This document shows positions 2,189 through 34,913 of a DNA stretch of 64,000 nt, piece by piece. Source of the stretch: a virus (lineage: Duplodnaviria > Caudoviricetes). The DNA is taken from IMG/VR virus record IMGVR_UViG_3300033463_000045, positions 48,266 to 112,265 of that record; one strand, written 5' to 3'. The notes beneath the pieces were generated by a model. The model did no database searches. It worked only from the letters and a program-made list of their open reading frames with translations, and was not told the origin of the DNA. A program made the position numbers and the translations under genes. How positions within the stretch are numbered: the stretch's first letter is position 1; each line of letters begins with the position of its first letter.

Positions 2189-2509
2189 ATGTATAGATTA
2201 ATATTTTTAGATAATTCAATGTTAGAATTAAAAGATTTAAAATCAATGGATGTAGAAACAAGTTTTTGGAATGGTCAAGGCAGACCTAAATATTTAAAAT
2301 TAATATTTAGACAAAAGAAAAATCCAGATTTAAATTTAGAGCAATTAAAAGAAGATTTTTATTCTAAACAATTAACAAAATTATTTATATATTCAGAAGA
2401 TGGACAAAAATTAGAATATGAAATACCAATTCCAACAAGAATTGATGTTGTAAATTATGCAGAAGAAAAATTAGAAGTAGGCTATGGAGACCCATTATAT
2501 TATAAATAG
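2189..2509 (+). CDS. Hypothetical protein
   Basis: ORF with AAGGAG RBS and upstream promoter motif. Confidence 0.7.
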   Translation: MYRLIFLDNSMLELKDLKSMDVETSFWNGQGRPKYLKLIFRQKKNPDLNLEQLKEDFYSKQLTKLFIYSEDGQKLEYEIPIPTRIDVVNYAEEKLEVGYGDPLYYK

Positions 2510-2517
2510 AGGTAAAT

Positions 2518-3231: not shown

Positions 3232-3243
3232 GGAGATAAGACA

Positions 3244-3804
3244 ATGACAATTTTAGAATATTTACAGGAAAAGAATATATCATTTAAAGCTGCATCCCAG
3301 CAATTAGGAGTAGATTCATCTAATTTTAGTAAAGTTGTTAGAGGAAAAATACCAGTAAGTATCTTATTTTATAAAAAAGTAAAAACTTCTTTTTTAAAAG
3401 ATTGTTCATTAGATGATTTAACATTTTCAAAAGAATTGATAAATAAGAAACCTATTATAGATATGCAGGTTGAAGAAGAATTAAAAAATAGAAAAAATAA
3501 AGAATCAACTGAAATAAATGAAATAGATTTAAATTTTAGATTAGCAAATAAAGAAAATAATAATGAACAGAAAAATAAAATAATAAATATAGATAGAAAT
3601 TTACCTAATGAAATTAAAGCTAAAACTGATGATATGAAAAAGATAATTGAAGAAAATAAAAAATTATTTAGAATTAATTTCAAATATGCTACTCAATTAC
3701 AAAATGCTTTAGATTGTTTAGATGATTTAGAAATTCAAATACAGATATTAAGAAATATTATTAATAGAGATAAATATTTGCAAGAATTACAAAATTTAAA
3801 ATAG
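3244..3804 (+). CDS. XRE-like HTH protein with C-terminal coiled coil
   Basis: ISFKAASQQLGVDSSNFSKVVRG HTH pattern. Confidence 0.6.
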   Translation: MTILEYLQEKNISFKAASQQLGVDSSNFSKVVRGKIPVSILFYKKVKTSFLKDCSLDDLTFSKELINKKPIIDMQVEEELKNRKNKESTEINEIDLNFRLANKENNNEQKNKIINIDRNLPNEIKAKTDDMKKIIEENKKLFRINFKYATQLQNALDCLDDLEIQIQILRNIINRDKYLQELQNLK

Positions 3805-6663: not shown

Positions 6664-7896
6664 ATGTTACTATTTGAAAAAAGATTTAATTTATTACAAT
6701 ATGCAGCAGATAAAAAATTACCGAAGGTATATGATTTATTAAACGTAATAAAAAATGATAATTCAATTCAAGTTGCAGCAACTGATGGTACAACAGTATA
6801 TGTTAATATAGATGAATTTAATAAAAGAGATGTTGAGTCAGAGTTCTTTATATTATGTCATGAATTATTACATATATTATATCATCATTTAGATAAAGAC
6901 TATTATCCAGAAGATATATATCAAAATAAAGAATTATTGAATATGTGTCAAGACGTAGTAATAAATGAATTTTTAGTACAAAGATTACTTTATAAAGAAC
7001 CTAATGGTTTATATTTAGATAACATAGCTGAAGCATTATATGCTAGAGGACTTAGACATACACCATATCTTAGCTTTGGTGGAGGACAATTAACAACAAA
7101 ATATTTATATAATTATTTATTAGGAAGATATGATGAAGATAGTCTAGAACAAATGATGCAAGATATTGGTTATAATAGTGAAGATGATAGACTTCAAGAT
7201 GATAGACTTCAAGATGAAGGTAATCATCAACAAGGAACAAAACAAGCAATTGATAATGTTATTAATCAATTAACAAAAGCATTAAAAATTAATCCTAAAA
7301 TGTTATTAGAAGAAAATATAGATAAACAAGCAGGAAAAAGTAATGAATATTCAGGAATGGTTAGTTCAAGAGCAGAAGTAAATATTATATCAACAACAGA
7401 AATGGTTAATTATATTAATTCATTTATAGGAACTAATGCTATTGAAAAAGGAAGAAATAGAACATATAGCAGACCATCAAGAAGAATTAATTTATCAAAT
7501 GATATGGTAGCAGCTGGTTATAAGCGTTATAAGAATATTAAAAAAATATCAATATATTTAGATGTTTCAGGAAGTATGGACGACTCATTAGTTACAACAT
7601 TATATAAAACATTAAAACTATTATATAATAAAGTTGAATTTGATTTTTATACATTTAATGGACAAATAGCTAAAATAGATATTAAGAATACTCAAGAAAT
7701 AGAAGTAAGCGGTGGAACTGATATAACTAATGTATTAAATAATATCGAAAAAGAAAAACAAGATGTAGCAATAATGATTACAGATTGCGAAGATTACTTT
7801 TCATTAGATAACGTTAAATCAAATTTAATGATATATACAAATAACTTTTCAGTTAAGAATAATAATCCATTAGTAAAGCTAACATATTTTCAATAA
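6664..7896 (+). CDS. Metallopeptidase plus VWA domain protein (DUF2201-like), partner of the MoxR-type ATPase
   Basis: AATDG, HELLH zincin motif, MIDAS DVSGS, GGTD, ITD. Confidence 0.85.
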   Translation: MLLFEKRFNLLQYAADKKLPKVYDLLNVIKNDNSIQVAATDGTTVYVNIDEFNKRDVESEFFILCHELLHILYHHLDKDYYPEDIYQNKELLNMCQDVVINEFLVQRLLYKEPNGLYLDNIAEALYARGLRHTPYLSFGGGQLTTKYLYNYLLGRYDEDSLEQMMQDIGYNSEDDRLQDDRLQDEGNHQQGTKQAIDNVINQLTKALKINPKMLLEENIDKQAGKSNEYSGMVSSRAEVNIISTTEMVNYINSFIGTNAIEKGRNRTYSRPSRRINLSNDMVAAGYKRYKNIKKISIYLDVSGSMDDSLVTTLYKTLKLLYNKVEFDFYTFNGQIAKIDIKNTQEIEVSGGTDITNVLNNIEKEKQDVAIMITDCEDYFSLDNVKSNLMIYTNNFSVKNNNPLVKLTYFQ

Positions 7897-7913
7897 TTAA
7901 TATGTTAGCTTTT
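7876..7913 (+). terminator. Intrinsic terminator-like hairpin
   Basis: AAAGCTAACATATT...AATATGTTAGCTTT inverted repeat over the stop codon. Confidence 0.6.
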
Positions 7914-7949
7914 CATATTATATAATAAGAAAGAAGGTGACTTAATAAT

Positions 7950-8153
7950 ATGGAAGATTATGATTATGTTGAAGAAAATATAAGAGCAATAGATTTATCA
8001 GATGATGAGTTAAAACAAGCATATAAATACTATAAATATTGGTATGATTATATGAGAGAATTTAAAGTTAAATCATTAAGTGAAGAAGAAATAGATTGGT
8101 ATAATGAATTAAAGAATGAAATGTTTAATAGACAATTAAAATTAGATGATTAG
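7950..8153 (+). CDS. Hypothetical protein
   Basis: RBS and promoter-motif variant upstream. Confidence 0.6.
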   Translation: MEDYDYVEENIRAIDLSDDELKQAYKYYKYWYDYMREFKVKSLSEEEIDWYNELKNEMFNRQLKLDD

Positions 8154-8257
8154 ATATATATTAGAGATATGATAATAATAAAATAATATAAATATATGTT
8201 AATATTAAAACATATACCAGAGTGTCTCAGAATGCATAAGAAAGGATGTGAATTATT

Positions 8258-9490
8258 ATAAAATTAAATGAATTAAAAGATAAATGTAATCAATTAAAAA
8301 TTATTCCACAACCAACAAGAAAAAGAAGAAATCCTGATAGATTAGAAGTTTGCGCTGATGATTGTATAAGAGCAATTCAAAGATATAGTATAGACCAAAA
8401 GAAATCTTATGGTCTATATGACTTTAATTTAGAAGCATTAATTGGTATTAAATCACCAATGTTAGCATTATTAATTAAGCATCAACCTGAAGATGTTCAA
8501 AAAGAAATATGGAATGATAATAATTATAATTGGAGATTTGAAAAGAAATATAATGGCGTAAGATGTTTTATTTCATATAATAATGAATTGAAAAAGATTT
8601 TTATATATGGAAGAGAACTAGATAATGATACATTATTGCCAAAAGATTATACAAATAGATTTCAAAAAATAGCATCTGATGTTTTTGATTTATTTCAAGC
8701 TGGATTAGTTGGTTATAGTTTTGTTATAGATTGCGAATTAACTATTAACGATTATTCAAAAGATATAATAGAAGATATATTAAATGACCCATATAAAGAT
8801 ATGGAAGCATTTAAATATGAATTTAATGCCTTTGATATATTTTCTACATTAAGAGATGGAACAATTTATAGTTTAGCAAGATTATCTGAAAGAATAAATT
8901 TATTAGAAAAAACAATGCAACGTCTTACTCCATATAATTTACCAATATATTTAGTAATGTCAAAACCCGATAATGTGTCAAAAGAAGATTTTTATAAATC
9001 AATAATTCGTAGTGGTGGAGAAGGAGTTATTGCTAAAGATTTAAATTCATCTTATGATTTTCGTGGTAAAAGAAATGGTGATTGGACTAAAATTAAAAGA
9101 TTAAATTATGAAGGAGTTGAAAATTTAAATGCAGATACTTACGATTTATTTGTATCTGATTGTATTATCACTGATAATATGGTTAGCGGTTTAGAATTAA
9201 GTAGTTATTTAGTTAATGATAATAATGATTTTATATATGATAGATTTAATAATCAAATTCCAATAACATTAGGAATATTATATGACTTATTACCAGAAAC
9301 TAAAAAGTTATTAACATTATATGATAATAATGGAAAGCCATATATAAATCCAAGATTTTTAGATATTGTTGTAGAAGTAAGGTCTACAGGATTTGATGAT
9401 TATGTTAATCAATTACAAAATTTAAAATTTGTATGTTGGAGACTAGATAAAAATTCAAGAGATTGTAAATTTAATAAAGATAAAATATAA
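8258..9490 (+). CDS. lig: ATP-dependent DNA ligase; probable non-AUG start at ATA 8258 (ORF track starts at 8459)
   Basis: PMLA, EKKYNGVR, DCEL, AFDI, EGVIAK, WTKIK motifs; frame open from 8252 with AAAGGA RBS upstream. Confidence 0.8.
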   Translation: MKLNELKDKCNQLKIIPQPTRKRRNPDRLEVCADDCIRAIQRYSIDQKKSYGLYDFNLEALIGIKSPMLALLIKHQPEDVQKEIWNDNNYNWRFEKKYNGVRCFISYNNELKKIFIYGRELDNDTLLPKDYTNRFQKIASDVFDLFQAGLVGYSFVIDCELTINDYSKDIIEDILNDPYKDMEAFKYEFNAFDIFSTLRDGTIYSLARLSERINLLEKTMQRLTPYNLPIYLVMSKPDNVSKEDFYKSIIRSGGEGVIAKDLNSSYDFRGKRNGDWTKIKRLNYEGVENLNADTYDLFVSDCIITDNMVSGLELSSYLVNDNNDFIYDRFNNQIPITLGILYDLLPETKKLLTLYDNNGKPYINPRFLDIVVEVRSTGFDDYVNQLQNLKFVCWRLDKNSRDCKFNKDKI

Positions 9491-9503
9491 AGGAGGAGAT
9501 AGC

Positions 9504-9851
9504 ATGTATAATTTAAAGTTACTTAGAAATATTAAAGATAGTAGTGAATTATCGTTTTTTAAATATTTTCCTTATAATTTATGTAGAGAATTATCTCTTT
9601 GTGGATTTATTGATTATCATATTATAAATGATAATAAAAATCTTAAAAACGATTTAATTGAAATAATAAATGAATTACCAGAAATAGAAAAAAGAATTAT
9701 AGAATTAAGATATGGCGTTAATGATAATAAACTAATAACACAGAAAGAAATAATAAATGAATTGCATCTTACTAAAAAATGTTGCGACAATTTTAATTAT
9801 CATATATTTAAAGCATTTAGACAAATAGCAAATAAATTAAATAAAATATAA
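9504..9851 (+). CDS. Sigma-70 region-4-like HTH protein
   Basis: LPEIEKRIIELRYG..ITQKEI...KAFRQI. Confidence 0.65.
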   Translation: MYNLKLLRNIKDSSELSFFKYFPYNLCRELSLCGFIDYHIINDNKNLKNDLIEIINELPEIEKRIIELRYGVNDNKLITQKEIINELHLTKKCCDNFNYHIFKAFRQIANKLNKI

Positions 9852-9863
9852 GGAGGAATAGAT

Positions 9864-10106
9864 ATGGAAGAAAAAGTAACATTTACAACATCAATAGATA
9901 AATGTGGTAGATTTGTAATACCAACAAAAGTTCTTAAGACATTGTCTTGGGACAAAGGAATATTAGCATTTGGAGAAGTTAATGAAGATTATATCATTAT
10001 TAAAAGTTTAGGTGAACAAGTAAAGTGTAATAAATGTAATAAAAAATATAATTCTCAATATAATTATTGTCCAATATGTGGAGAAGTATTAAAAATTAAT
10101 AAATAA
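9864..10106 (+). CDS. AbrB/SpoVT-like DNA-binding protein with zinc ribbon
   Basis: IDKCGRFVIP AbrB motif; CNKC...CPICG. Confidence 0.7.
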   Translation: MEEKVTFTTSIDKCGRFVIPTKVLKTLSWDKGILAFGEVNEDYIIIKSLGEQVKCNKCNKKYNSQYNYCPICGEVLKINK

Positions 10107-10107
10107 T

Positions 10108-10153
10108 TGACACCCAGAGGCATTGAAATATAGTTAGATTAATAATTATATTA
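10108..10153. repeat. Dispersed intergenic repeat family member
   Basis: 10115-10153 matches 11624-11662 at 35/39; 10108-10118 is the exact reverse complement of 36007-36017. Confidence 0.7.
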
Positions 10154-10225
10154 CTCAAAGTAATATAACAAATCATTTTATATATATTTTCTCTAATAAT
10201 AAAAAGAAATAAGAGGAGAATATAT

Positions 10226-10444
10226 ATGAGAAAAGAAAGTTTAAGATTATTTTCAGAAATTATTATATCTATGTTAGCAATAGATAGTTTAAATAAAGAC
10301 CAATTATTAATATTAAAAAATAAAATAGAGGAGTTAAAAAAGATACCTCAAGATGATAGACTTGAATTAATGATAAATTGTTATCATTTATTTGATGAAA
10401 ATAAATATGAAGATAATATTGATATTTTATCAGGTAGAAAATAA
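10226..10444 (+). CDS. Hypothetical protein
   Basis: GAGGAG RBS. Confidence 0.55.
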   Translation: MRKESLRLFSEIIISMLAIDSLNKDQLLILKNKIEELKKIPQDDRLELMINCYHLFDENKYEDNIDILSGRK

Positions 10445-10464
10445 ATATAAAGGAGATGATATAG

Positions 10465-11088
10465 ATGGACTCTAATCAATTTAAAAATATCTATATTGGA
10501 ATAGACCCATCTTTAAGTGGTTTTGGAATTTCAATAATAGACACAAATAATAAACAAATTATATTAGATGAATTTAAAGCAGATAATCATCATAATTTTA
10601 TATTAATGTGTTGGTCTATTTCGAATTTATATAATAATATATTTGAAAAATATAAAAATTATATTGATAAAGAAACAAATATAGCACAAGAATTACCTAT
10701 TTCATCTGGAATTAATTCTGGCAAGTTAAATGCATTAGGCATGCATTTTTATAATGAATTAGGAAAATATAGTAAATATACAAATATATATTGTTATCAT
10801 CCAATTAAGTTAAAAGTATTTCATCATAAAAGAAAATATGATAAGAAAGATACAATAAGAGTTATTGAAGATATATTAGAGATATTTAAGAAGAATAATT
10901 ATAATATTGATATAAGATATTCAAGAACAAAAAAGAATTTAAATATTACTAATAATGAAGCAGATTCTTTTATGTATGCAATAAGATTATATATGAATAA
11001 GAATGATGACATAATAACTAAAGAGATATTAGATAAATACCCAAGATTTGAAAAGATAGTTTCTTTAAATGAGGAATTAGGAATGTAA
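10465..11088 (+). CDS. RuvC-like Holliday junction resolvase
   Basis: IGIDPSLSGFG, AQE, NNEADS catalytic pattern. Confidence 0.75.
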   Translation: MDSNQFKNIYIGIDPSLSGFGISIIDTNNKQIILDEFKADNHHNFILMCWSISNLYNNIFEKYKNYIDKETNIAQELPISSGINSGKLNALGMHFYNELGKYSKYTNIYCYHPIKLKVFHHKRKYDKKDTIRVIEDILEIFKKNNYNIDIRYSRTKKNLNITNNEADSFMYAIRLYMNKNDDIITKEILDKYPRFEKIVSLNEELGM

Positions 11089-11089
11089 T

Positions 11090-11617
11090 ATGCAAAATAA
11101 TACTCGAAAAAGTAAAATGACTCAACATGTAATTAAAAGAACTAGAGAAAGAGCAGACTTAAATGGTAAGTCAGCAAATACTTTAGTTAAAGAAACAATG
11201 CAATACGGGTTATCTCCAGGAGATTTTGTAGGAGATTTCTATTCATATTTGCATTATATAAAAGGTAAAAAATATAAATCAATTGGGATTAGAGTATTTG
11301 ATAATAATATATTAGTATATAATAAGAAAAGTAGAAAAGCAATAACACTTTATCAAGTTCCAGAAAAGTTCTTACCAATAGAGCAATATAGAATATCTAA
11401 AGCAAATGAAAAATTAAATGAATTGACAAAGACTATTAAAAAATTATTTAAAGATAAAGTAGATATAGAATTACAGATTTTAGTAGATAAACCAAAAGAC
11501 TTTGTTGCTGGATTAGTTATTAATAATGTATTTCAATGTTTTGGTAAAGGAAAAACAAGATTTGAGGCTGAAGAGAATGCAGTTCAATTATATTTAGACA
11601 AATTATATAAGAAATAA
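11090..11617 (+). CDS. Hypothetical protein with C-terminal dsRNA-binding-motif-like segment
   Basis: FGKGKTRFEAEENAV resembles the dsRBD GxGxSKKEAEQxAA motif. Confidence 0.45.
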   Translation: MQNNTRKSKMTQHVIKRTRERADLNGKSANTLVKETMQYGLSPGDFVGDFYSYLHYIKGKKYKSIGIRVFDNNILVYNKKSRKAITLYQVPEKFLPIEQYRISKANEKLNELTKTIKKLFKDKVDIELQILVDKPKDFVAGLVINNVFQCFGKGKTRFEAEENAVQLYLDKLYKK

Positions 11618-11690
11618 TGCATTCAGAGGCATTGAGATATAATAATATTAATAATTATATTATTTAATTTATATAAACTATAAGAAAAGA

Positions 11691-11719
11691 TGTACATTTG
11701 TGGTATTTTATGGTATAAT
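11691..11719 (+). promoter_or_regulatory. Early promoter TGTACA-N17-TATAAT
   Basis: Matches the 5292 copy. Confidence 0.7.
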
Positions 11720-11752
11720 ATAATTATATAAATTATATTAAAGGAGGAAATT

Positions 11753-11995
11753 ATGGAATTTGGTGGACATAAAATAATAGGAAATGATTATTATTCTATA
11801 AGAGGAAATATTATTGAATTAAATAATATAGACACAATAATACCAGAATATCATAATAATCATAGAAGTATATATCTTAAAGTTATTAAAAAGAATAAAG
11901 GCAAGACTATAATTAAAATGCAAAATAAACAAGAATATAATTATACAATTAAAGCAATTAATATACTTACAGATTTAAAATTAGAAGAAATATAA
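11753..11995 (+). CDS. Hypothetical early protein
   Basis: AGGAGG RBS after promoter. Confidence 0.6.
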   Translation: MEFGGHKIIGNDYYSIRGNIIELNNIDTIIPEYHNNHRSIYLKVIKKNKGKTIIKMQNKQEYNYTIKAINILTDLKLEEI

Positions 11996-12024
11996 TTTTA
12001 TTTAGTAGATTGGAGGCGACTTAA

Positions 12025-12360
12025 ATGAAATTTGATGAAAGTAGAATTATAACAGATGAAACTGGTTATAATTATGTAAGAGTAACCCCACAAGAAATAT
12101 TAAATTGGGGAGGTTATTGTATTTGCAATGGTTGCAATAAACAATTTTTAGATGAAGATATGAATCTCTTCTTTGGTTGCACAGATACTTATTGTGATAC
12201 TTGTTTTGATAGAATGAAACAAAGATGGAAAACATATTCTAAAGAGGATATAGAATATGATATAGCTATTCAAAAAGAAGAATCACTAAATTGGTATAAA
12301 TATCATTTAGATGATGAATATAGGGAAATGATAAATAATCAATTTAATAATGATTACTAA
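12025..12360 (+). CDS. Zinc-finger hypothetical protein
   Basis: CNGC...CDTC. Confidence 0.6.
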   Translation: MKFDESRIITDETGYNYVRVTPQEILNWGGYCICNGCNKQFLDEDMNLFFGCTDTYCDTCFDRMKQRWKTYSKEDIEYDIAIQKEESLNWYKYHLDDEYREMINNQFNNDY

Positions 12361-12366
12361 GAGGAG

Positions 12367-12642
12367 GTGAAATATATGGAACATGTAACTAGAAATAAAA
12401 ATGATATGATGAAAGATGTTGTCATTAATTATAGAGGTTGTGGTCATCATGAATATTATGGAATGTTAGTTTGGAGAGATGGTTTACAATATTGTAGAAG
12501 ATGCATTCATCAAATTTGGGTTAAAGAAAATCCAAATGGTTGGAAACCTGGTCCTGATGAAAAATATTTTCCATTATATGAAGATGGCATAAATTATTAT
12601 GAACAAGATTTAAAGAAAGGAGAAGATAGCGTATATGAATAA
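12367..12642 (+). CDS. Hypothetical protein with Cys motifs
   Basis: RGCG...CRRC; start may be ATG 12376. Confidence 0.55.
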   Translation: MKYMEHVTRNKNDMMKDVVINYRGCGHHEYYGMLVWRDGLQYCRRCIHQIWVKENPNGWKPGPDEKYFPLYEDGINYYEQDLKKGEDSVYE

Positions 12643-12937
12643 ACTAGAAAATCCACTATTAGCAGAAATTGATATTAGTGTAACTCATCAAGGTATTGGT
12701 GGTAAGACCATAGTAATAGAAAGAGAAGGTACTATTTCTTGGGTATTAGATGTACCATTTGATGAGATGACTATAGGATTATCAAACTTTATTAATAGAT
12801 ATAGTATAATGTCTATGCCAGAAGAAACTAAAGTATATTATGGTCATGTTGGAAATCTCGGATATTTTGTAGCTGAAAATGAATTACATAATTTAAGAGA
12901 ATCTACATTGTCTGAAGCATATGAATATTTACAATAA
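12635..12937 (+). CDS. Hypothetical protein
   Basis: Overlapping operon context with AAGGAG RBS. Confidence 0.6.
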   Translation: MNKLENPLLAEIDISVTHQGIGGKTIVIEREGTISWVLDVPFDEMTIGLSNFINRYSIMSMPEETKVYYGHVGNLGYFVAENELHNLRESTLSEAYEYLQ

Positions 12938-12976
12938 GATTAATTACATAATATATAATAGATTGGAGGAATTAAT

Positions 12977-13390
12977 ATGTATAAAGAGATAAAATCTAAT
13001 TTAAAAGAAACACTAAATTTAGATGAATGTGAAATACTTAATGAAATGGCAACCATTGGACAAGATAATAATGGTTATGTTTATATGATATATAAAAAAG
13101 AAGGAGTAATACCTCATTTTCATATATTAAAAGATAATAAAACAATTCAATGTATTAGAATAGATAAACCATATTACTTTAGTCATAATGGTAAATACAG
13201 TTATAAATTAAATAGTAAAGAAAGAAAAGAATTAGTATCATTTTTAAATAGATTACATTTCTCTAAGAGACCAAATAATACTATGACTAACTGGGAATTT
13301 TTATTAAGTCAGTGGAATATTGAAAATAATACAGATATAAATGAAGATTTAGTTATACCTGATTATACTAAATTAAAAATGGATAAATAG
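12977..13390 (+). CDS. DUF4160-like protein with a degenerate leader (YKEIKSNLKE)
   Basis: PHFHI motif; LKE and LNE putative cleavage sites. Confidence 0.5.
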   Translation: MYKEIKSNLKETLNLDECEILNEMATIGQDNNGYVYMIYKKEGVIPHFHILKDNKTIQCIRIDKPYYFSHNGKYSYKLNSKERKELVSFLNRLHFSKRPNNTMTNWEFLLSQWNIENNTDINEDLVIPDYTKLKMDK

Positions 13391-13405
13391 AAAGAAGGAA
13401 ATAAA

Positions 13406-13891
13406 ATGAGTAGAGAAATAAAAGATATATTTAAAGACCAAGAATTAATAGACTTATGTAATAATAATATTGAATTAACTTCTAAATTAAATGAGGTTAA
13501 TTTAGAAATAGTAAATAAATTTAAAGAAGTTACTAAATCTGATGAAATTGATAATGAAGAAAAAATATTTTTAGCAGAAAGCTTTGTTAATAAAGGTGAG
13601 TATGAGGTTTTCTTAAATGATAGATTTGAAGATGAACTTTATAATGAAATAGTTCAATTTAATAAATTAAAAGAATCAATTGATGAAAAGAAAGCATTAA
13701 TTAAGAATTTCTTAGAAGAAAACGGTATGGGAACTTTTGAAACAAGTACATTAAAAATTAAATATACATCAGCAACTACTGCTACAACAATAGACACAAC
13801 AAGATTAAAGAAAGAACTTCCAGATATTGCTGCAAAATATTCTAAAGTATCAGCAAGGTCTTCTTCATTATCAATTGAACCAATAGAATAA
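13406..13891 (+). CDS. Phage coiled-coil protein, possibly recombination-associated
   Basis: IDTTRLKKELPDIAAKYSK motif common in phage proteins. Confidence 0.45.
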   Translation: MSREIKDIFKDQELIDLCNNNIELTSKLNEVNLEIVNKFKEVTKSDEIDNEEKIFLAESFVNKGEYEVFLNDRFEDELYNEIVQFNKLKESIDEKKALIKNFLEENGMGTFETSTLKIKYTSATTATTIDTTRLKKELPDIAAKYSKVSARSSSLSIEPIE

Positions 13892-13905
13892 AAGGGCGAT
13901 AAATT

Positions 13906-14130
13906 ATGAATTTATATAGTAATATTAAAAATAATATTAATAGTGCAGATTCTAAGTATATGAAAGAATGGACAGAAATATGTGAAGCATTTTGTAAGAA
14001 GATAAATGCTGAACTATTATTTGTTAATCTTGATAACTTTGGTTATATGACTAAAGATGGTCAAACTATTCATATGTATGCTGATGAGCTTGCAGAATAT
14101 CTAAATAATAAAAATAAGAATAATCAGTAA
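13906..14130 (+). CDS. MNLY-leader family protein (putative internal head protein)
   Basis: MNLYSNIKNNIN; body is homologous to the C-terminus of 15502..16371. Confidence 0.65.
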   Translation: MNLYSNIKNNINSADSKYMKEWTEICEAFCKKINAELLFVNLDNFGYMTKDGQTIHMYADELAEYLNNKNKNNQ

Positions 14131-14172
14131 ACAATTTACTGATTATTTTCTTTATATAAGAGGAGATTATTT

Positions 14173-14418
14173 ATGAACTTATATGAAAGTATTGAAAAAA
14201 ATTTAAAAGAATCAGAAAAATCTTTGGAAGACAAATGTAAAGAAATATTTAATAAATATAGAGATGAATTTGATACTATAAATGATGTAAGAGATATTGC
14301 AGATTATTTAAATAAATTATATTCAGAAGAAGGAATACAAGCTGTAAATGATTGGTTCCTATCGAGTGCAACTGAAGAATACAAAAAAGATTTAAAATCT
14401 TTAATAAATAAAAAGTAG
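14173..14418 (+). CDS. MNLY-leader family protein
   Basis: MNLYESIEKNLKESE. Confidence 0.65.
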   Translation: MNLYESIEKNLKESEKSLEDKCKEIFNKYRDEFDTINDVRDIADYLNKLYSEEGIQAVNDWFLSSATEEYKKDLKSLINKK

Positions 14419-14432
14419 AAAGGAAAATAGAT

Positions 14433-14702
14433 ATGAACTTATATGAAAGTATTGAAAAAAATTTAAAAGAATCAGAACATTCTGATGATTATTGTACAAT
14501 AGCTGCTACAGAATTTGTTGTTGATAGATTACCAAGTGATTGGAAAAATTTATCTAATGACGAATTAAAAGAATTAGTAAGAGAAGAAGTAAATAATTAT
14601 AATAATGCTAATGTCGAACCTGAATATGAAAATGAAGATTTTTATGGTGATGAAGCAGATTATAATAAAGTATTTGATTATATAATATATAGTTATAAAT
14701 AG
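14433..14702 (+). CDS. MNLY-leader family protein, acidic
   Basis: MNLYESIEKNLKESE; first 45 nt identical to the previous gene. Confidence 0.65.
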   Translation: MNLYESIEKNLKESEHSDDYCTIAATEFVVDRLPSDWKNLSNDELKELVREEVNNYNNANVEPEYENEDFYGDEADYNKVFDYIIYSYK

Positions 14703-14716
14703 AAAGGAAGATTAAA

Positions 14717-15487
14717 ATGAATTTATATGAAAGTATTAAAAATAATTTAGATAAAGATTCAGATACAGAATTAGAAATTTTAGATACTCAAATAGATTTT
14801 CCTGCCGTGTTTGATTCATTTGATACAAGCGGCATTATTGATATAATAAAAGACACTGATTCAAAAGATTTAAGTGCGTGTATTGCAGGAGGAACAAGAA
14901 GTTCTCGCGAACAAAATGCATATAATTTATATATAGATAAATGCATTTTATGTGGCAAAGTAGGTTATAATAATTTTATCCCAGTGCATAAAAATAAATA
15001 TAAAGATTATAGTTATTGGTCGTATGAAGACAATTATGGATGGCCTTTTTCTAATGTTCATTTTCCATCTGAAAAAGTAGCCAAAATAATAGTTAAAATA
15101 CCTCATAAACAACGCAAAAAAATTTATATAAGAGCAAGAATATGTTTTTGCAAAGATTGTTATGAGAAAAATGTCGTACCATTTGTGCTTAAAAAAGCAG
15201 ATGAAATTAAAAAAATTGTCGCTTATTATAGAGATAATAATAAATATCCAAGTAAAGGCGAGGTTATAATTTTTGGTAAGGATATATTAGATATAATTAA
15301 TGACGGGATAATTAATGCTAGTCATTATAATAAACATGAAAAAAATAAAATAATCGATAGATTATATCAAATTGTTGATTTAGAAACACCTTATAATGAT
15401 GTTGATAAGATTTATGAAAGATTTCTCAAATATTTTATTTCATCGGGTAACGCTGATGACTCAATTAAATTTAATCCAAAGAAATAG
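14717..15487 (+). CDS. MNLY-leader family protein with Cys pairs
   Basis: MNLYESIKNNLD; CILC and CKDC. Confidence 0.65.
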   Translation: MNLYESIKNNLDKDSDTELEILDTQIDFPAVFDSFDTSGIIDIIKDTDSKDLSACIAGGTRSSREQNAYNLYIDKCILCGKVGYNNFIPVHKNKYKDYSYWSYEDNYGWPFSNVHFPSEKVAKIIVKIPHKQRKKIYIRARICFCKDCYEKNVVPFVLKKADEIKKIVAYYRDNNKYPSKGEVIIFGKDILDIINDGIINASHYNKHEKNKIIDRLYQIVDLETPYNDVDKIYERFLKYFISSGNADDSIKFNPKK

Positions 15488-15544
15488 AAAGGAAGATTAA
15501 AATGAATTTATATAGTAATATTAAAAATAATTTAAATGAATCTG
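15485..15544 (+). repeat. Stop-RBS-leader junction repeat, 59/60 identical to 52654-52713
   Basis: TAGAAAGGAAGATTAAAATGAATTTATATAGTAATATTAAAAATAATTTAAATGAATCTG. Confidence 0.9.
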
Positions 15545-16371
15545 CAAAATTCTATTATAAAGAATTTAGTGGCGCTGGTGAAATTGATTATGTTGAATTT
15601 GAGACAGAACAAGAAGCAAATGATTATGCTAAAAAAGTTAATGAAGAATCTGGTAATGAAACAGCAGTATATAGAATAGATAATGATGAATGCATTGCTT
15701 TATATGACGCATTAAATGAATCTGAAAAGTTAAAAGAAGATGATAAGAGTTATTCCAAAGGAGTTAATGTATTAGATAAATTATATAGTAATCCTGAGTA
15801 TGAAGCTTTATGGGATAAGAAATTTAATGAATTAGTCCCAAAATCAGGAAAAGCTAAGACAACTATTGGAGAGATTATGCGAGGATTTTCTTCATTAAGT
15901 CATGCATATTATCAAAATGGTGATACTGTTAATTCATTATATCGTCAACATTTTAATAGCGGTTATTTACAAGATGCACATGATTTATATAAAGCAGTAA
16001 AAGAACTTGGAGATAGAACTCTTATTGATTTAACAGATAAAATGTTTAATACAAGAAGAGAAAGCGCTTATTGTAAATATATGGCAGCTTTTTATGAGTA
16101 TTTTATAAATAATTATCTTTCAAAAGAAAATATAAATGAATCTGAAGATAAAGTATTAGATTCTATTAATCAACTTTCTTATAATAAAAATAAGAAATTA
16201 GATAAATATATGGCTGAATGGGAATCTATTTGTCAAGCTTTTTGTAAAAAGATAGGAGCTAAATTATTATTTGTTAATATAAATAATTTTGGTTATGAAG
16301 ATAAAGATGGAAATTTAGTTCATATGTATGCAGATGAATTAGAACAATATTTAAAAAATAATAAAATTTAA
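15502..16371 (+). CDS. MNLY-leader family multidomain protein
   Basis: MNLYSNIKNNLNES; internal LNESE, LKED, INESE. Confidence 0.65.
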   Translation: MNLYSNIKNNLNESAKFYYKEFSGAGEIDYVEFETEQEANDYAKKVNEESGNETAVYRIDNDECIALYDALNESEKLKEDDKSYSKGVNVLDKLYSNPEYEALWDKKFNELVPKSGKAKTTIGEIMRGFSSLSHAYYQNGDTVNSLYRQHFNSGYLQDAHDLYKAVKELGDRTLIDLTDKMFNTRRESAYCKYMAAFYEYFINNYLSKENINESEDKVLDSINQLSYNKNKKLDKYMAEWESICQAFCKKIGAKLLFVNINNFGYEDKDGNLVHMYADELEQYLKNNKI

Positions 16372-16387: not shown

Positions 16388-19300
16388 ATGAACTTATATG
16401 AAAATATTAAAAATAATTTAAATGAAGATGAGAATGTTCAATCAGGTATGACGTTATATGATTATATTAAAAATGTCTGTAATGGAGAAATAGACATGGA
16501 CGTTTGTGATAATGATATAGATATGATGGTAGCATTTTGTCATAATATAAATGAACATAGTTCAGAATACCCACAAATGGAAAGATTTTTAAATTTATTA
16601 GCAAAAAGAACTAAAATTATTAAACAAAATAATGGAGGATATGCTCCAATATTAATTTGTGATTTTAGTTCAGCATTAAAACCATATAATGAAGAGTGGA
16701 AGAAATTCTTTGATATGGATTATTCAGACTTTGATGAAGATGAAGCATATTATGAAGCAGTAGTTAATCTTGAACCATTAATAAGCGGTAATGCAGGAGA
16801 AGATACTTATAAAGAATTTTGTGATATTATGGAAGGTAAAAAATTAGAAGAATCTGAAGAAGAAAATGAAGAACAAATTTGTGTTATATGTAATAAACCA
16901 TTTACTGGTTGGGGTAATGACGCTTGGCCAGTAGCAGAAGGTTATTGTTGTGATGAATGCAATTTTTCTAAAGTAATTCCTGCAAGATTAGCTCAATTAA
17001 GAGAATATCGTAATGATACTAAAATAAAAGAATCTGAATCTTTTAAATTAAATAAAGATGCAGAAGATTTTGAAGATTTAGTAAAAAGAGATTTTCAAAA
17101 TTATATAGAAGATACTTATAATATACAAAATGTTCAAGAATTAGCAGATAGATTAGAACACGTAACAGAAGAAGATATAAATGATTATTTTACAACTTTA
17201 TTCTATGAAATATTTGACAATGAAGATATGGAAACAGCTAATTTAGCAGAAGAAATTATAAGAAAAGAATATGGACTTCAAGATAATATAGATGAATCTG
17301 AAAAACAAGAAAAATTAAATGAGGCAAAAAATTATGATGATTATTGGAATTTATCGGAAGATATTCCGATTATTCCTAATTTTGACCTTGATAATTTTCC
17401 AAAAGATAAATTGTGGCAATTAAGAAAAGAAATAACTTTAGGAAGCCCATATTTATCTAAATATGATAATTCATTAGGTCTAAATCCAGCTGCTTTAAGA
17501 AATTTCTTTAATTCATTTGTTGAAAATGGAAAGAATAATAATAAAACATTAAAAGATATAGATAATCAAGATGATTTATATAATTTTTATATAAATTGTG
17601 AAGACCCTTTTAATTTAAAAGACGAATTAGATGAATCTGAAGAAGCAAATTTAACATTATCACAGATTAAAGATAATTTAGAAGCAATTAAAAATAATGA
17701 AGAAAGAAATTATGAAATATATGGAAGTGCATTAGAATTTCCAAGTATATTAGAAAAAATTGATAATGTAGATGACAGAAGAAAAGCATTAATGATGTTA
17801 TATATGAATAATCCAAAGTTAGAAGAATTAAAAACTTGGACTGCAAAACAAATTAAAGATTATATATTAGATACTGAGGAAGTATTTAATATAAATATTG
17901 ATAGTAATTTTGATGAAGAACCAACTAATTATAGAAAAGCATACGCAAAATGTTTTGAATTAATTGGAACAAATTTAAATGAATCTGCTAAAGGACAATG
18001 GACAAGTGGTTTTAAAAAATTAGATGGTTATACTGAAGAAGAAGCTTATAAATTATTAGTTAAAGCGGCTAATATAAAGCTTAATACTTTTGCAAAGAAT
18101 AATCATGATAATGAAGAACTTCAAAGAGAATTTGAAGAGAAATATAATGAACCATTTGGAATACAAATTGGTGGAGATACCGTAGGTAATTATGGTTATA
18201 ATCCAAAATATTTAGAATTTTTAAATTCTAAAGGAAATTTAGATGAAGCAGAAGATAATCAATTATATGTATTTTCAAATGCAGAATCTGAAGATATGAC
18301 AGATGCTATTAGTATGATTAATTCTATATATAAAAATGAAGCTCCTAAATTACAATTTAAAATGCATTCAGAAGGACCTATGTGGTTTGTTGATTTTATA
18401 GGTAGTTATCAAGACATTTGTGATTATTTAATTAAGTTAGGTTGGTATAATGAAAAAGAAATAAATGATTTAACTAATAATAAATTAATTAGACCGTTAC
18501 CTATAAAAGAATCAGAAGAAAAAGTAAATCCTAATAATTTAACTAAAGAACAATTATGGAAATTAAGACAAGAAATAAGATTAAATAGTATATATACAAA
18601 TGATTATGAAAATTCATTTGATTTAGACCCTGTAGCAGTTCAAGATTTCTTTGATACATTTATTGAAGATATGGAACAAGATGATGATGGAAATCCTAAT
18701 AATAGAAAAATAGAAGATTATGATAATGCTGATGATTTATATAATTTCTATACAGGTTGTGAAAATCCTTTTGGTGAAATAGAAGAAATTAAAGAATCAG
18801 AAGATTATTATGATGACGATGATGATTATTGGGAAGACCATAATGATGACCCAATAGAATGCACTATTGAATATGATGAAGATGGAAAACCATATTTTAT
18901 GTATAATAATGAGAAAGAATATATAGATGAATATATGAAAGATGGAGCAGGTGGAGCTACTAAACCATTAACAGCATTTTCAGCTATTAGAATAGTTCAT
19001 TCAGATAATGGAGAAACTGTTAGTGTTCAATATCTTCATGATTCAGAAAAGATTAAAGAAGCAGAAGAATCAGATGAAGATAAAAAGTTATCTTTTAAAG
19101 AAAGAGTTCTTAAAGCATATGATAATTGTAATTATTCAGTAAGGTCAGATATGCCAACAATTAAAGATATAATAGATTATTTAGACCTAAGTAATGATTC
19201 AGAAACAAGAGATAAAGTATCTCAAATTATTTATAAAGCAGGAAAAGATTGGCAAGTAGAAAGCTGTAATGAAGCAGAAGACAAAGAAGAATCTAAAGAA

Positions 19301-20041
19301 GAAGTAAAACATAAAGATGATATTAAAGTATATATGAATACATGGAAAAATTATAATGAATATGGTGCAGATTTAGATGCTTATGGAATTAAAGATGGTT
19401 GGATGAATCCTGATGATGCATTAGAATTTTGTAAAAAATATGCAGAAGATGAACCGTTTATAAATGATATAGATAATAATAGCGGAATTGATATTGAAGT
19501 ATCTGAATATGATAATGCTCCTTCAGTATTAGAAGGTTTAGCAAAATTAAATGATGTATTATATTTTGGAGCAGGAAATGCTGAAAAAGGAGATATTCCA
19601 TTAGTATATGAAGCTTGGGCTGATAAAGAGTCAGCAACTACTCCATCATTAGAAAATATAGAAAATTTTATAGATTTCTTAGAAAATGGAGAATATTATG
19701 TTCATAATGATGTTACATCAACAGAAGATATTGGAAAATGGTATGTTGAAAATGTAGGTTATGAAGGAGTATCAAATATAGAAAATTATATTGACTCAGA
19801 CCAAGTTAAAGAAGATTGGCAAGAAGATATAGACCAAAATTATTTAGATGATGATGGAAATCCAACAGAAGACTGGTACGAAGTTGATGATTCACTTGTT
19901 GACGAAGATATAGAATCAGCAAAACAAAGTAATGATACTAATTTCTTTGATAAATATTTTGATTATGCATCTCTTGGAGACGATATTTATGGAGATGGAA
20001 ATTGGTACGTAACAGATAATGGTTCAGTTGAAATATATTAA
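16388..20041 (+). CDS. MNLY-leader family polyprotein (1217 aa) with C-terminal ArdA-like antirestriction domain
   Basis: Leader; about 11 [LI]-x-E-[SA] linkers; IKVYMNTWKNYNE...GW...EPFIND and KYFDYASLGDDI..GNWYVTDNG resemble ArdA. Confidence 0.65.
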   Translation: MNLYENIKNNLNEDENVQSGMTLYDYIKNVCNGEIDMDVCDNDIDMMVAFCHNINEHSSEYPQMERFLNLLAKRTKIIKQNNGGYAPILICDFSSALKPYNEEWKKFFDMDYSDFDEDEAYYEAVVNLEPLISGNAGEDTYKEFCDIMEGKKLEESEEENEEQICVICNKPFTGWGNDAWPVAEGYCCDECNFSKVIPARLAQLREYRNDTKIKESESFKLNKDAEDFEDLVKRDFQNYIEDTYNIQNVQELADRLEHVTEEDINDYFTTLFYEIFDNEDMETANLAEEIIRKEYGLQDNIDESEKQEKLNEAKNYDDYWNLSEDIPIIPNFDLDNFPKDKLWQLRKEITLGSPYLSKYDNSLGLNPAALRNFFNSFVENGKNNNKTLKDIDNQDDLYNFYINCEDPFNLKDELDESEEANLTLSQIKDNLEAIKNNEERNYEIYGSALEFPSILEKIDNVDDRRKALMMLYMNNPKLEELKTWTAKQIKDYILDTEEVFNINIDSNFDEEPTNYRKAYAKCFELIGTNLNESAKGQWTSGFKKLDGYTEEEAYKLLVKAANIKLNTFAKNNHDNEELQREFEEKYNEPFGIQIGGDTVGNYGYNPKYLEFLNSKGNLDEAEDNQLYVFSNAESEDMTDAISMINSIYKNEAPKLQFKMHSEGPMWFVDFIGSYQDICDYLIKLGWYNEKEINDLTNNKLIRPLPIKESEEKVNPNNLTKEQLWKLRQEIRLNSIYTNDYENSFDLDPVAVQDFFDTFIEDMEQDDDGNPNNRKIEDYDNADDLYNFYTGCENPFGEIEEIKESEDYYDDDDDYWEDHNDDPIECTIEYDEDGKPYFMYNNEKEYIDEYMKDGAGGATKPLTAFSAIRIVHSDNGETVSVQYLHDSEKIKEAEESDEDKKLSFKERVLKAYDNCNYSVRSDMPTIKDIIDYLDLSNDSETRDKVSQIIYKAGKDWQVESCNEAEDKEESKEEVKHKDDIKVYMNTWKNYNEYGADLDAYGIKDGWMNPDDALEFCKKYAEDEPFINDIDNNSGIDIEVSEYDNAPSVLEGLAKLNDVLYFGAGNAEKGDIPLVYEAWADKESATTPSLENIENFIDFLENGEYYVHNDVTSTEDIGKWYVENVGYEGVSNIENYIDSDQVKEDWQEDIDQNYLDDDGNPTEDWYEVDDSLVDEDIESAKQSNDTNFFDKYFDYASLGDDIYGDGNWYVTDNGSVEIY

Positions 20042-31752: not shown

Positions 31753-31776
31753 AATAAATAGAAAGGAAAAGCAAAT

Positions 31777-33090
31777 ATGAATTTATACGAGTCAATTAAA
31801 AAGAATTTAAAAACAAAAGAGAGAATATCTAAATTAAATGAATCTGAGAATAATTTAAAAGAGGTTATTCGTACAGGTTTAGAAATGAAAGATTATTTAA
31901 AGTTAAATGGTTTTGAATCTCTTGTTAATAAAATAGATGATGATAAAGCAACTTATAGATTATATTTAGACCCAGTAAAAGGAACATTTAGTGGTAATTA
32001 TAAATTAGAAAAAATAAATGAATCTTGTGGAAGAAAGAAAAAAATTAAAATAAAAGAAAGTAATTTAGCAAAATATCTTGGAGTTGCTCAATCATTAACA
32101 GAAAAAGTAAATCATGCTAATGATGATATTAATGCTAAAATACTAGAAGCTTTAAGAAGTAAATATAAAGCAAAGAAATATGCAGATGATTTTAAAAAAG
32201 CAGGAATTACAGTAGATGATTCACCAAGAGAAGGTGTTACATTAATTGGACCTAATGGTAAAAGATTATCTGCTGACAGATTAGAAATACATGGACCAGC
32301 AAAACCAGGACATAATAATACTCATGGTGGTCGTTATGGTTCAAGAATTAAATCTAAAATAAAAGATTTAGATAATTATAATAAGAGAATAGCAGAACAA
32401 AAAGAAAATATTGAAAATCTTAAAAATGCTGAGCATGATGATATTATTAGAAAATATCCTAATAAAACTACTGAAGAAGCTTTAAAAGCACATGAAGATA
32501 ATATTGCTAGTGAAGAAAGTAGTTTAAATTGGAATAAGAGATGGAGAAAAGATACTCAAAAAGATATTGCTCGTGAACATAGAAATCGTGCTGAGGGACA
32601 TAATAGTGATTTAGGATATGGAAATAGAATTATTGATAGAAAATCATCTGCGATTGATAAAATAGACTATAAAGGTTATTTAGACTCTAAGGATAATGAT
32701 ATTAATAAAGACTTTACAGGTGGCGGTTATGTAAAACCTACTCCAGGACAACAAGTTAGACAAGACCTTAAAAATGCTAAAGATAAAGTAAATAATACTT
32801 ATTATAGATGGGATGCTCAAGATGTTGCAAGAGATAGAAAAATTGATGCGAAAGCAATTGAAGCCCGTAAGAAAGAAATTGAAGAAGAATATAAAAAGAA
32901 AATGGACGATGAAGTAAATAGAATGTTAGAAAGAAAATCTAAAGCAGATTCTAGTTATAAAGACCATAAAGAATATTATAGAAAAAATGTTAATGATTTA
33001 AATGCTTTTAGAAAACAACATAATTTACCAACAAAAGATGAAGATTCATTCGATGATTATCTTGAAAAGAAAGCTAATTCAAATTGGTAA
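31777..33090 (+). CDS. MNLY-leader family protein with basic C-terminal domain
   Basis: MNLYESIKKNLK; GPNGK domain shared with 52671..54302. Confidence 0.65.
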   Translation: MNLYESIKKNLKTKERISKLNESENNLKEVIRTGLEMKDYLKLNGFESLVNKIDDDKATYRLYLDPVKGTFSGNYKLEKINESCGRKKKIKIKESNLAKYLGVAQSLTEKVNHANDDINAKILEALRSKYKAKKYADDFKKAGITVDDSPREGVTLIGPNGKRLSADRLEIHGPAKPGHNNTHGGRYGSRIKSKIKDLDNYNKRIAEQKENIENLKNAEHDDIIRKYPNKTTEEALKAHEDNIASEESSLNWNKRWRKDTQKDIAREHRNRAEGHNSDLGYGNRIIDRKSSAIDKIDYKGYLDSKDNDINKDFTGGGYVKPTPGQQVRQDLKNAKDKVNNTYYRWDAQDVARDRKIDAKAIEARKKEIEEEYKKKMDDEVNRMLERKSKADSSYKDHKEYYRKNVNDLNAFRKQHNLPTKDEDSFDDYLEKKANSNW

Positions 33091-33105
33091 TAAGGAGGAC
33101 TTCTT

Positions 33106-33444
33106 ATGAATTTATATGAAAGTATAAAGAATAATCAAAAATTTAATGAGGCAGAAGAAAAAACTTTAGTAACAATATATCAAGTTCCAACAGGAAAAGA
33201 TTATGCTTTTATGGATTATGATTTTGCTAAAGAACATGGATTTAATTTTAATGACTATGAAAAAGTTGCTGATATTGAAGTGCCAATAAGTACTGACTTA
33301 GAAGAAATCTTTACATTAGGTAATATACATAAAGATATGTTCAATGCCTCTAGAGATAAATTTAGAAGTATTTCTGTTTCAGATATAATTGAAAAAGATG
33401 GTAAAAAATATTACGTAGATTCATTCGGATTTAAGGAGGTATAA
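33106..33444 (+). CDS. MNLY-leader family protein with YodL-like domain
   Basis: TIYQV..DYAFM..DYEKV..LEEIF..FRSISVSDII..YYVDSFGFKEV. Confidence 0.75.
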   Translation: MNLYESIKNNQKFNEAEEKTLVTIYQVPTGKDYAFMDYDFAKEHGFNFNDYEKVADIEVPISTDLEEIFTLGNIHKDMFNASRDKFRSISVSDIIEKDGKKYYVDSFGFKEV

Positions 33445-34094: not shown

Positions 34095-34913
34095 ATGGGA
34101 GTATTAAAAGTATTAAAAGGTACATTATCTACATTAGGTAAAAAGAATCGTAATGGTCGTATTTATTCTAAAGAGTTATGGGAAAATGTTCTTAATTCTG
34201 AATATTGGAATGATATGATGAGTAATAATTCATTATTTGGAGAATGTGTTCATCCTGCAGATAATAGAAGTACATCAGATTCATTTGAAATAGATGCTAA
34301 TAATGTATCTCATAGAATTAAAGAAGCTCATATTGAAGGAGATAAATTAATAGGTACTGTTGAAATATTAGATACTCAAGCAGGAAAAAATATTGCAGCA
34401 TTAATTGATAGTGGTTGTAATATAGGAATATCTGCAAGAGGTGCAGGAGACCTTAATGGTGATACTGTAGACCCAGATACTTATCAATTTAAAACTTTTG
34501 ATTTAACATTTAGACCTTCTGATTATAATGCTAGACTAGTTCCTTTAACTGAATCAGAAAAGAAAAACTTTAAACCTATTAAAGAATCTGAAGAATCAGA
34601 TACATTAATTAAAGGTGCAGAAGAAATAAATTCTACTAAAGTAGATAAAGATATTAAAAAAGGTTTAAAAGATAGAGTAGTTAAGAAATATATTGATGGT
34701 TATACAGATAAACCAATTCAATTTAGTAAATTTACAATAGAAATATTACCCACTACTTCTGATACTGATAAATTAAGAGTTGCTGTATATGATAAAGAGC
34801 ATGACGCAAGAGAGATTGTTGGTTATTTTAATAAAGATGACATACATACAGATGATTCGTTAGTTGAAAAAATATTAGATATAATGAGTTATTCATACGA
34901 ATATGATTTATAA
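34095..34913 (+). CDS. Prohead core protease (T4 gp21-like)
   Basis: KNRNGRIYS, GECVHP, VSHRI, ILDTQAG, GISARGAG, FDLTFRPS. Confidence 0.88.
   Translation: MGVLKVLKGTLSTLGKKNRNGRIYSKELWENVLNSEYWNDMMSNNSLFGECVHPADNRSTSDSFEIDANNVSHRIKEAHIEGDKLIGTVEILDTQAGKNIAALIDSGCNIGISARGAGDLNGDTVDPDTYQFKTFDLTFRPSDYNARLVPLTESEKKNFKPIKESEESDTLIKGAEEINSTKVDKDIKKGLKDRVVKKYIDGYTDKPIQFSKFTIEILPTTSDTDKLRVAVYDKEHDAREIVGYFNKDDIHTDDSLVEKILDIMSYSYEYDL

Follow-up and report, generated by a model that had tools for sequence, protein, structure and literature searches.

The internal proteins of phage T4 are diverse and have in common only a leader of 10 residues, which the gp21 protease removes (PMC3012670, PMC9026906). 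The targeting information of this capsid-targeting sequence (CTS) lies at positions 4 and 7 (PMC9026906), and the internal proteins IPI-III inhibit GmrSD-type restriction enzymes (PMC3012670, PMC9026906, PMC12373910). The T4 protease, a member of family S77, cuts after Glu in I/LxE (PMC12991175), and its cleavage is reported to be affected by secondary structure, as cited in PMC12991175. In a second described system, the polyvalent proteins, one polypeptide encoded by a phage or conjugative element combines 2-15 distinct conflict-related domains in mosaic arrangements (PMC5512222). Here we analyse a 64,000-nucleotide stretch (henceforth the window), which is the right-hand 64 kb of the 112,265-bp IMG/VR virus record IMGVR_UViG_3300033463_000045, and in it a gene encoding a protein of 1217 amino acids (aa) with features of both systems. 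Judging from its sequence, this protein is probably a capsid-targeted polyvalent cargo polyprotein that is cut by the prohead protease. The original prediction, made from the DNA alone, had proposed that a single leader carries about a dozen small effectors which the prohead protease releases, and had called this a viral-polyprotein strategy. Wherever this reading could be examined computationally it was upheld; the term is fair as an analogy, while the T4 internal proteins with their CTS and the polyvalent proteins of the type described by Aravind provide closer frames.

The phage record has a GC content of ~25%, a 127-bp direct terminal repeat and 142 of its 143 open reading frames (ORFs) on one strand. 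The polyprotein ORF (16388-20041; Table 1) is open under the standard code, and all eleven motifs that had been read as punctuation marks between its domains (“beads”) were present where the original prediction placed them. Given with their first residues, and with an arrow for the expected cut, these are LEE↓SE (153), IKE↓SE (213), IDE↓SE (301), LNE↓A (310), LDE↓SE (414), LNE↓SA (530), LDE↓AE (618), IKE↓SE (706), IKE↓SE (801), IKE↓AE (889) and CNE↓AE (960). With LNE↓D at residues 11-13 of the leader, the number of sites comes to 12, each being (L/I/C)-x-E with S, A or D as the next residue; they would divide the protein, after the 13-residue leader, into pieces of 142, 60, 88, 9, 104, 116, 88, 88, 95, 88, 71 and 255 aa, the 9-aa piece being a spacer after bead 3 that forms a double site (IDE↓SEKQEKLNE↓A). 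The pattern [LI]xE[SA][EA] was observed 9 times in the polyprotein, where shuffling of its own sequence predicts 0.33, and the looser form [LIVMC]xE[SAG] 15 times against 4.5. Specifically, all 10 occurrences of the strict motif [LI]xE[SA] lay at proposed joints and none within a bead. The protein consists of 24% Asp and Glu, and each bead is net acidic (acidic/basic residues, e.g., 31/12, 27/7, 26/8 and 69/16); given this all-acidic composition, several beads besides the ArdA-like last one might be nucleic-acid mimics. At the DNA level, the joints share 8-9 nucleotides of identity.

Two other origins were considered and rejected. The joints are not leftovers of fused leaders, as the MNLY..I part of the leader is present at none of them, and the long frame is not an artefact of assembly or genetic code, as comparable long ORFs occur in independent assemblies from ENA and Logan.

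We found 78 long mosaic homologues of the polyprotein and 1878 representative clusters with matches at E≤1e-3, all of them piecewise: modules recur in differing order and number, and many also exist as stand-alone small proteins. Among 169 HMMER hits in these relatives, 70% of starts and 69% of ends fell within 10 residues of a site or terminus, compared with 23% and 20% under random placement (maximum 34% in 2000 trials). When internal borders were projected onto the relatives, a strict motif was found within 20 residues in 54% of cases upstream and 47% downstream, against 22-23% for random positions. In the polyprotein itself, homology boundaries clustered at residues 532, 620 and 708 (i.e., the ends of beads 5-7). 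AlphaFold2 (AF2) models, which cover residues 1-320 and 963-1217 and hence six sites, gave a mean predicted local distance difference test score (pLDDT) of 83 for residues 1-320, with minima at residues 1-20 (57-63), 151-160 (62), 211-220 (48) and 301-320 (56-66), that is, at sites 13, 155, 215 and 303/312. The flanks of the 12 sites were also more hydrophilic than random positions (p ~0.003, motif itself excluded). The expectation that structure prediction would place the sites in disordered linkers was thus borne out for the sites modelled, the joints being low-confidence, hydrophilic and coincident with evolutionary module borders. We conclude that the sites mark true module borders.

Such borders could also be explained if the protein were packaged via its leader and remained largely uncut, with L-x-E-S-E serving as flexible acidic spacers and as recombination junctions (GAA TCT GAA) that permit module shuffling, so that one multidomain polyvalent protein would act after injection. 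Published polyvalent proteins are deliverable intact (e.g., the N4 virion RNA polymerase; PMC5512222), a folded helix within the ArdA-like core likewise contains the motif, and the short DNA identity shared by the joints is in line with such junctions. Against this, the joint motif agrees at each position with the specificity of the family to which the phage's own protease belongs (P3, L/I; P1, Glu; P1', a small residue), N-terminal leaders end in it as well, it recurs at the borders of relatives despite otherwise differing linkers, and the double sites resemble the redundant propeptide sites of phiKZ and SPN3US (PMC9026906, PMC5694885). We therefore consider delivery of an uncut chain unlikely.

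The shared N-terminal leader that had been postulated is real and is common to 13 otherwise unrelated proteins. These 13 (among 143 encoded by the phage) start with M(N/S)LY(E/S/K)(S/N)I..N, and most continue with L-(N/K)-E-S, the motif occupying residues 11-14; their bodies range from 74 to 1217 aa and have no BLAST similarity to one another past the leader at E<1e-4. In the AF2 model of the polyprotein the leader forms a short helix at residues 3-12 (pLDDT 57-63). Four other ORFs had been said to have the same architecture, which held for those starting at 15502 (3 sites) and 52671 (5 sites), both with the leader; those at 29077 (given as 29095) and 30328 have sites and lack the MNLY leader. 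The regions upstream of the leader genes have strong Shine-Dalgarno sites, no obvious shared promoter was found there, and the leader DNA is near-identical between some neighbours. In other phages of the group the leaders differ (MKSITRNLLESLNE↓S, MNIFNEIQNNLKE↓S and MKTNVNIFNALNE↓S), yet all end in L-x-E↓S; that unlike leaders converge on this ending points to selection on the peptide and not on the DNA alone. The invariant Tyr4 and Ile7 of the leader parallel positions 4 and 7 of the T4 CTS, which we regard as a parallel and not as a test.

Leaders and polyproteins were also seen elsewhere in this phage and its relatives. A second polyprotein of 979 aa (record positions 12479-15418, 35.8 kb upstream of the window start) starts with the same leader (MNLYSNIKKKLNE↓S) and contains 11 strict L/I-x-E-S/A motifs, of which several form double sites (e.g., LNE↓SEKLKE↓S); it includes a bead with homology to family ‘C’ of the 786-aa relatives. 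In a 127-kb relative (L004; IMGVR_UViG_3300031993_000027), about ten consecutive small genes at 6749-15175 begin with MIR(V/L/I)(I/V/L)E(N/S/G/D), which may be a minimal form of the leader, and bead 1 is there a stand-alone 125-aa gene. In another relative (L010), six small genes in a row at 174-3567 each have a leader of the form ‘...L(F)ES(F/Y)N.NL(N/K/D)E↓S’; one of them encodes a stand-alone ArdA-like protein of 245 aa, and the 1165-aa polyprotein of the same phage lies 7 kb downstream.

The phage encodes a prohead protease, as the original prediction required, and it is of the gp21 type (S77). Its conserved His53 and Ser113 align with H85 and S140 of T4 gp21, the catalytic residues that were replaced by alanine in the mutant structure 5JBL (PMC12991175). 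The protease itself has C-terminal LTE↓S and IKE↓S motifs, the Gp23-type major capsid protein has N-terminal LKE↓G, LKE↓S and MNE↓S (residues 11-13, 32-34 and 61-63), and the phage's portal belongs to Portal_T4; motifs near the termini of capsid protein, portal and protease are what would be expected of substrates of this protease. No peptidase, MuF or portal domain was detected by Pfam in the polyprotein, and no HExxH motif was found in it.

The T4-type portals of this phage (record positions 30607-32466) and of two relatives (L002:7950-9932 and L007:7635-9617) begin with a few mostly basic residues, after which comes LNE↓S or LNE↓A. The arrangement suggests that the portal N-terminus may also be trimmed by the protease; T4 gp20 is reported to be unprocessed (PMC5694885). 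Directly after the protease gene, positions 34976-35932 of the window encode a 318-aa protein with several helix-turn-helix matches, which are weak and spread over ~20 PHROG regulator families; such a gene is unexpected next to that of a head protease.

When each bead was searched against Pfam and PHROGs, a function was obtained only for the ArdA-like last module (bead 11), and the other ten were without a firm family or fold match. Bead 11 matched Pfam ArdA (PF07275) at E=3.9e-4 and 21.5 bits, under the gathering threshold of 27. It has 140 stand-alone homologues of ~240 aa which cover 93-100% of the bead; many of them, including many at 40-55% identity, carry PF07275, and the best relative reaches Pfam ArdA at 6.3e-13. 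The AF2 model has a pLDDT of 90.2 and a predicted template modelling (TM) score of 0.80; over its 12 initial residues, which follow CNE↓A, the pLDDT is less than 50. In Foldseek, the ArdA structure 2W82 was the sole match at E≤0.001 (1.7e-4, probability 1.00, target TM 0.51-0.60), and it was also the top, weak profile match (E=0.077). The predicted structure of bead 11 thus corresponds to the ArdA fold of the elongated three-domain type. Compared with ArdA of Tn916 (Orf18, PDB 2W82), it would have the same fold and, with 69 acidic and 16 basic residues, is similarly very acidic; it is however ~90 residues longer, and is fused to or tagged for putative capsid delivery rather than expressed as an early gene. 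Normally, ArdA and Ocr are early proteins and are not packaged, and no description of a capsid-packaged ArdA was found in the literature searched (the search was not exhaustive).

The stand-alone ArdA-like homologues come in two forms. Bare forms start a few residues ahead of the conserved VYMNTWKNY, and tagged forms carry a leader such as MNLYEKFSKRLKE↓AEE or MNIFNEIQNNLKE↓S, so that the same cargo is found untagged, tagged or last in a chain. The idea that the beads are small effectors is therefore upheld for at least one module, a recognisable effector that also exists as a stand-alone leader-tagged protein. Of 61 multi-bead relatives, 15 contain ArdA, and GNAT, DUF7678 and DUF5661 occur in one each. 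A tblastn search of GenBank phages with bead 11 returned no match. Within the ArdA-like core, a (L/V)(L/V)(Y/W)E↓AW motif at residues 1071-1076 is conserved (homologues P0079-P0198; here VYE↓A), which may be protected by structure, or the module may be split in two in some phages.

Most relatives have bead 1 in first place, and it also occurs on its own in proteins of ~130 aa; it had no match in Pfam, PHROG or PDB and no usable match in ESM Atlas. The small zinc finger that had been noted is a genuine, confidently modelled bead (bead 2), with Cys165, Cys168, Cys187, Cys188 and Cys191, a weak match to the DUF4428 zinc ribbon (E=0.009) and stand-alone homologues of 59-67 aa. For residues 220-298 in bead 3, the best helical-bundle matches in VIA-align (Z≤5.8, recombinase core-binding-domain-like) were below a meaningful level and were not used, and Foldseek returned zero matches at E≤0.001 for the model of residues 1-320. 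Beads 4 and 8 are paralogous (46% identity, E=6e-27), the alignment running up to their terminal LDE and IKE, and modules of this family ‘A’ occupy varying positions in many relatives; bead 8 additionally had a weak DUF7677 match (E=0.012) and 55% identity to a hypothetical protein of Bacteroides phage BS-TP1. Beads 5-7 had no family match in Pfam or PHROGs, and modules homologous to beads 9 and 10 are shuffled in four relatives (P0003, P0004, P0005 and P0068).

A protein this acidic could alternatively be a disposable prohead core or scaffold like T4 gp22, gp67 and gp68, the fragments of which would leave the head before DNA packaging and would not be injected effectors. T4 core proteins are indeed cut at many I/LxE sites and then expelled (PMC5694885), and bead 1, kept as the first module in many relatives, is possibly structural. 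However, the modelled beads are well-folded independent domains, a complete ArdA-like last module and the GNAT and other folded domains of relatives would make no sense in a throw-away scaffold, and the bead set varies between phages with 82-86% identical flanks, unlike an essential scaffold. Taken together, we find a scaffold role very unlikely.

Three close relatives retain the flanking primase, DnaB and upstream gene with 82-86% identity to the present phage, whereas their polyproteins are only 36-45% identical (global) and differ in their bead sets; four of the upstream leader-tagged genes are absent from these relatives, and L005 is among those without them. Sequence comparison shows a hypervariable polyprotein locus with conserved genes on either side. 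In a distant relative of 128 kb, a 786-aa polyprotein is encoded immediately behind the T4-type portal gene; a YodL-domain protein comes next, and an S77 protease lies 10 kb downstream. A profile search of IMG/VR with bead 1 found only 3 loci, and 2 of the 3 records carry S77. No match was obtained in a close-relative scan of IMG/VR with the whole polyprotein, nor for the gene's DNA among GenBank phages, and tblastn with the whole protein gave a single small match, to a Bacteroides phage hypothetical protein. The relatives L007, L010 and L011 carry SpoVS, SpoVG, YodL, FtsK/SpoIIIE and GroES/GroEL genes, which together with the strong AGGAGG ribosome-binding sites in the window point to a spore-forming Bacillota host.

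The position of the gene next to primase and helicase genes raises the alternative that the polyprotein is not a virion protein at all, its modules being ordinary early proteins, and leader and joints serving cytoplasmic processing by another protease or translational control, or reflecting common cassette ancestry. Some ArdA-like homologues are without any leader, the normally early expression of ArdA and Ocr would agree with it, and the near-identical leader DNA of neighbouring genes fits recent duplication. This alternative leaves unexplained why the differing leaders of other phages all end in L-x-E↓S and why LNE↓S is likewise present at the N-terminus of the portals in these phages; moreover, the polyprotein lies within the head cluster in one relative, and it contains neither another protease domain nor HExxH. 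We regard a non-virion role as quite unlikely.

Under the reading that we favour, a capsid-targeted cargo polyprotein cut by the prohead protease, the 13-residue leader (MNLYENIKNNLNE) would act like the T4 CTS and bring a 140-kDa precursor into the assembling prohead core. Once activated, the S77 (gp21-type) protease would cut after Glu at exposed (L/I)-x-E↓(S/A) linkers and free about eleven small acidic proteins of 60-255 aa, which would stay in the head, be ejected with the DNA and act in the new host before phage gene expression. The ArdA-like last module would be a DNA-mimic inhibitor of restriction enzymes, and the others presumably further counter-defence or takeover factors. Prohead entry, cleavage, retention, injection and the function of each module are what we infer from the sequence. 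We are evenly divided on the broader proposal that T4-type phages of AT-rich, probably Bacillota, hosts have a general cargo-polyprotein system, in which one leader and recombining acidic modules (possibly mostly DNA mimics or decoys) are cut by the protease into pre-made counter-defence proteins, including the first capsid-packaged ArdA.

Several observations weigh against cleavage and packaging. The polyprotein's own leader ends in LNE↓D, where Asp at P1' is unusual and makes leader removal uncertain; the strict motif is kept at only about half of the projected borders in relatives; and in the AF2 model of residues 1-320 a low-confidence helix runs through site 215. A strict motif (LLYE↓AW) lies inside a confident core helix in 61 of 116 stand-alone ArdA-like homologues, and the motif is therefore not proof of a cut. 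The gene sits here among replication genes (primase, DnaB), outside the head cluster. All beads are strongly acidic, whereas T4 IPI-III are basic. Finally, there is no cultured relative, the best match of the capsid protein having 30% identity and the ArdA-like bead being unmatched in GenBank phages.

The proposed system resembles T4 IPI, IPII, IPIII and Alt in having a short leader on unrelated cargo (with the I/LxE ending followed by a small residue in most members of the leader family), an S77 prohead protease, hypervariable cargo loci and, in the ArdA-like module, cargo that would counter host restriction. It differs in that T4 cargo has one functional unit per leader, whereas here one leader precedes about eleven modules with internal motifs; there is no sequence homology to the T4 internal proteins, and the cargo is acidic and not basic. 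With polyvalent proteins (Iyer, Burroughs, Anand, de Souza, Aravind 2017; PMC5512222) it shares many small domains including ArdA, fast shuffling and predicted delivery with the DNA: we found 11 modules, shuffled mosaic relatives and a recognised effector (ArdA-like), and one relative (P0078) has a weak LPD26 match. For published polyvalent proteins, in-cis processing by a zincin-like metallopeptidase (MPTase) and anchoring by MuF or portal fusions have been proposed; the polyprotein is without these, and appears to rely instead on a CTS-like leader and a motif for a trans-acting prohead protease at every joint. In the giant phages phiKZ, 201phi2-1 and SPN3US, a gp21-related protease likewise cuts after Glu at short motifs, several of them in each substrate; paralogues there have N-termini in common, and the cleavage yields ejection proteins (PMC5694885, PMC9026906, PMC10052503). 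There, however, the extra sites lie in discarded propeptides that leave one mature product (PMC5694885, PMC10052503), and the motif is S/A/G-x-E or A-x-E, whereas in the polyprotein the pieces between sites are independent folded modules and the motif is L/I-x-E. No description of a CTS-led, protease-jointed polyprotein was found in the literature, in a search that was not exhaustive.

If the joints are cut, tailed phages would pre-load many effectors from one targeting signal by a polyprotein strategy, which would unite the T4 CTS internal proteins with the polyvalent proteins, so far treated apart. A sequence rule (leader, L/I-x-E↓S/A joints and S77 protease) would then find injected proteins in metagenomic phages, and hundreds of functionally uncharacterised small modules would become candidate first-minute counter-defence factors, with ArdA-type DNA mimics deliverable as protein. 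The >1800 module clusters, nearly all of them without an assigned function, would then amount to an extensive and unexploited collection of anti-defence proteins that are injected, and the polyprotein would be a natural template for multi-cargo loading of T4-type capsids.

Table 1. Features of the window, with positions in window coordinates (aa, residues of the polyprotein; arrow, expected cut)
Feature	Position	Strand	Basis
Polyprotein gene (P0001)	16388..20041	+	Open frame, ATG start, strong Shine-Dalgarno site, 1217 aa
Leader, aa 1-13, MNLYENIKNNLNE, candidate CTS ending LNE	16388..16426	+	Shared leader; AF2
Bead 1, aa 14-155, alpha/beta domain, ends LEE↓SE	16427..16852	+	pLDDT 87-97
Bead 2, aa 156-215, Cys-rich, zinc-ribbon-like, ends IKE↓SE	16853..17032	+	pLDDT 88-95
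Bead 3, aa 216-303, helical bundle, with the 9-aa spacer after it	17033..17323	+	pLDDT 64-87
Bead 4, aa 313-416, family ‘A’ module, ends LDE↓SE	17324..17635	+	Paralogue of bead 8
Beads 5-7, aa 417-532, 533-620 and 621-708, ends LNE↓SA, LDE↓AE and IKE↓SE	17636..18511	+	Homology boundaries
Bead 8, aa 709-803, second family ‘A’ module, ends IKE↓SE	18512..18796	+	Paralogy with bead 4
Beads 9 and 10, aa 804-891 and 892-962, ends IKE↓AE and CNE↓AE	18797..19273	+	phrog_17101 (unknown function), E=5e-6
Bead 11, aa 963-1217, complete ArdA-like antirestriction module	19274..20038	+	Pfam, AF2, Foldseek
Five leader-tagged genes in tandem (13906, 14173, 14433, 14717, 15502), directly upstream of the polyprotein gene	13906..16371	+	All begin MNLY(E/S)(S/N)I
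Two leader-tagged genes (31777, 33106), just upstream of the protease gene	31777..33444	+	Leader
Prohead protease, gp21-type Peptidase_S77, proposed processing enzyme	34095..34913	+	Pfam 44.5 bits (cut-off 27); phrog_207, E=6e-41
Three leader-tagged genes (51658, 52027, 52671), the last a 543-aa multi-bead protein	51658..54302	+	Leader, sites
Leader-tagged gene (MSLYSNIKKNLKE↓S), directly upstream of the capsid gene	57016..57462	+	Leader
Major capsid protein, Gp23-type	57625..59010	+	Pfam Gp23, E=3.7e-10

Elsewhere in the window, PHROG matches identified a family-A DNA polymerase split in two ORFs and a helicase ORF nearby (45911-47206, 47321-48421 and 49938-51299).

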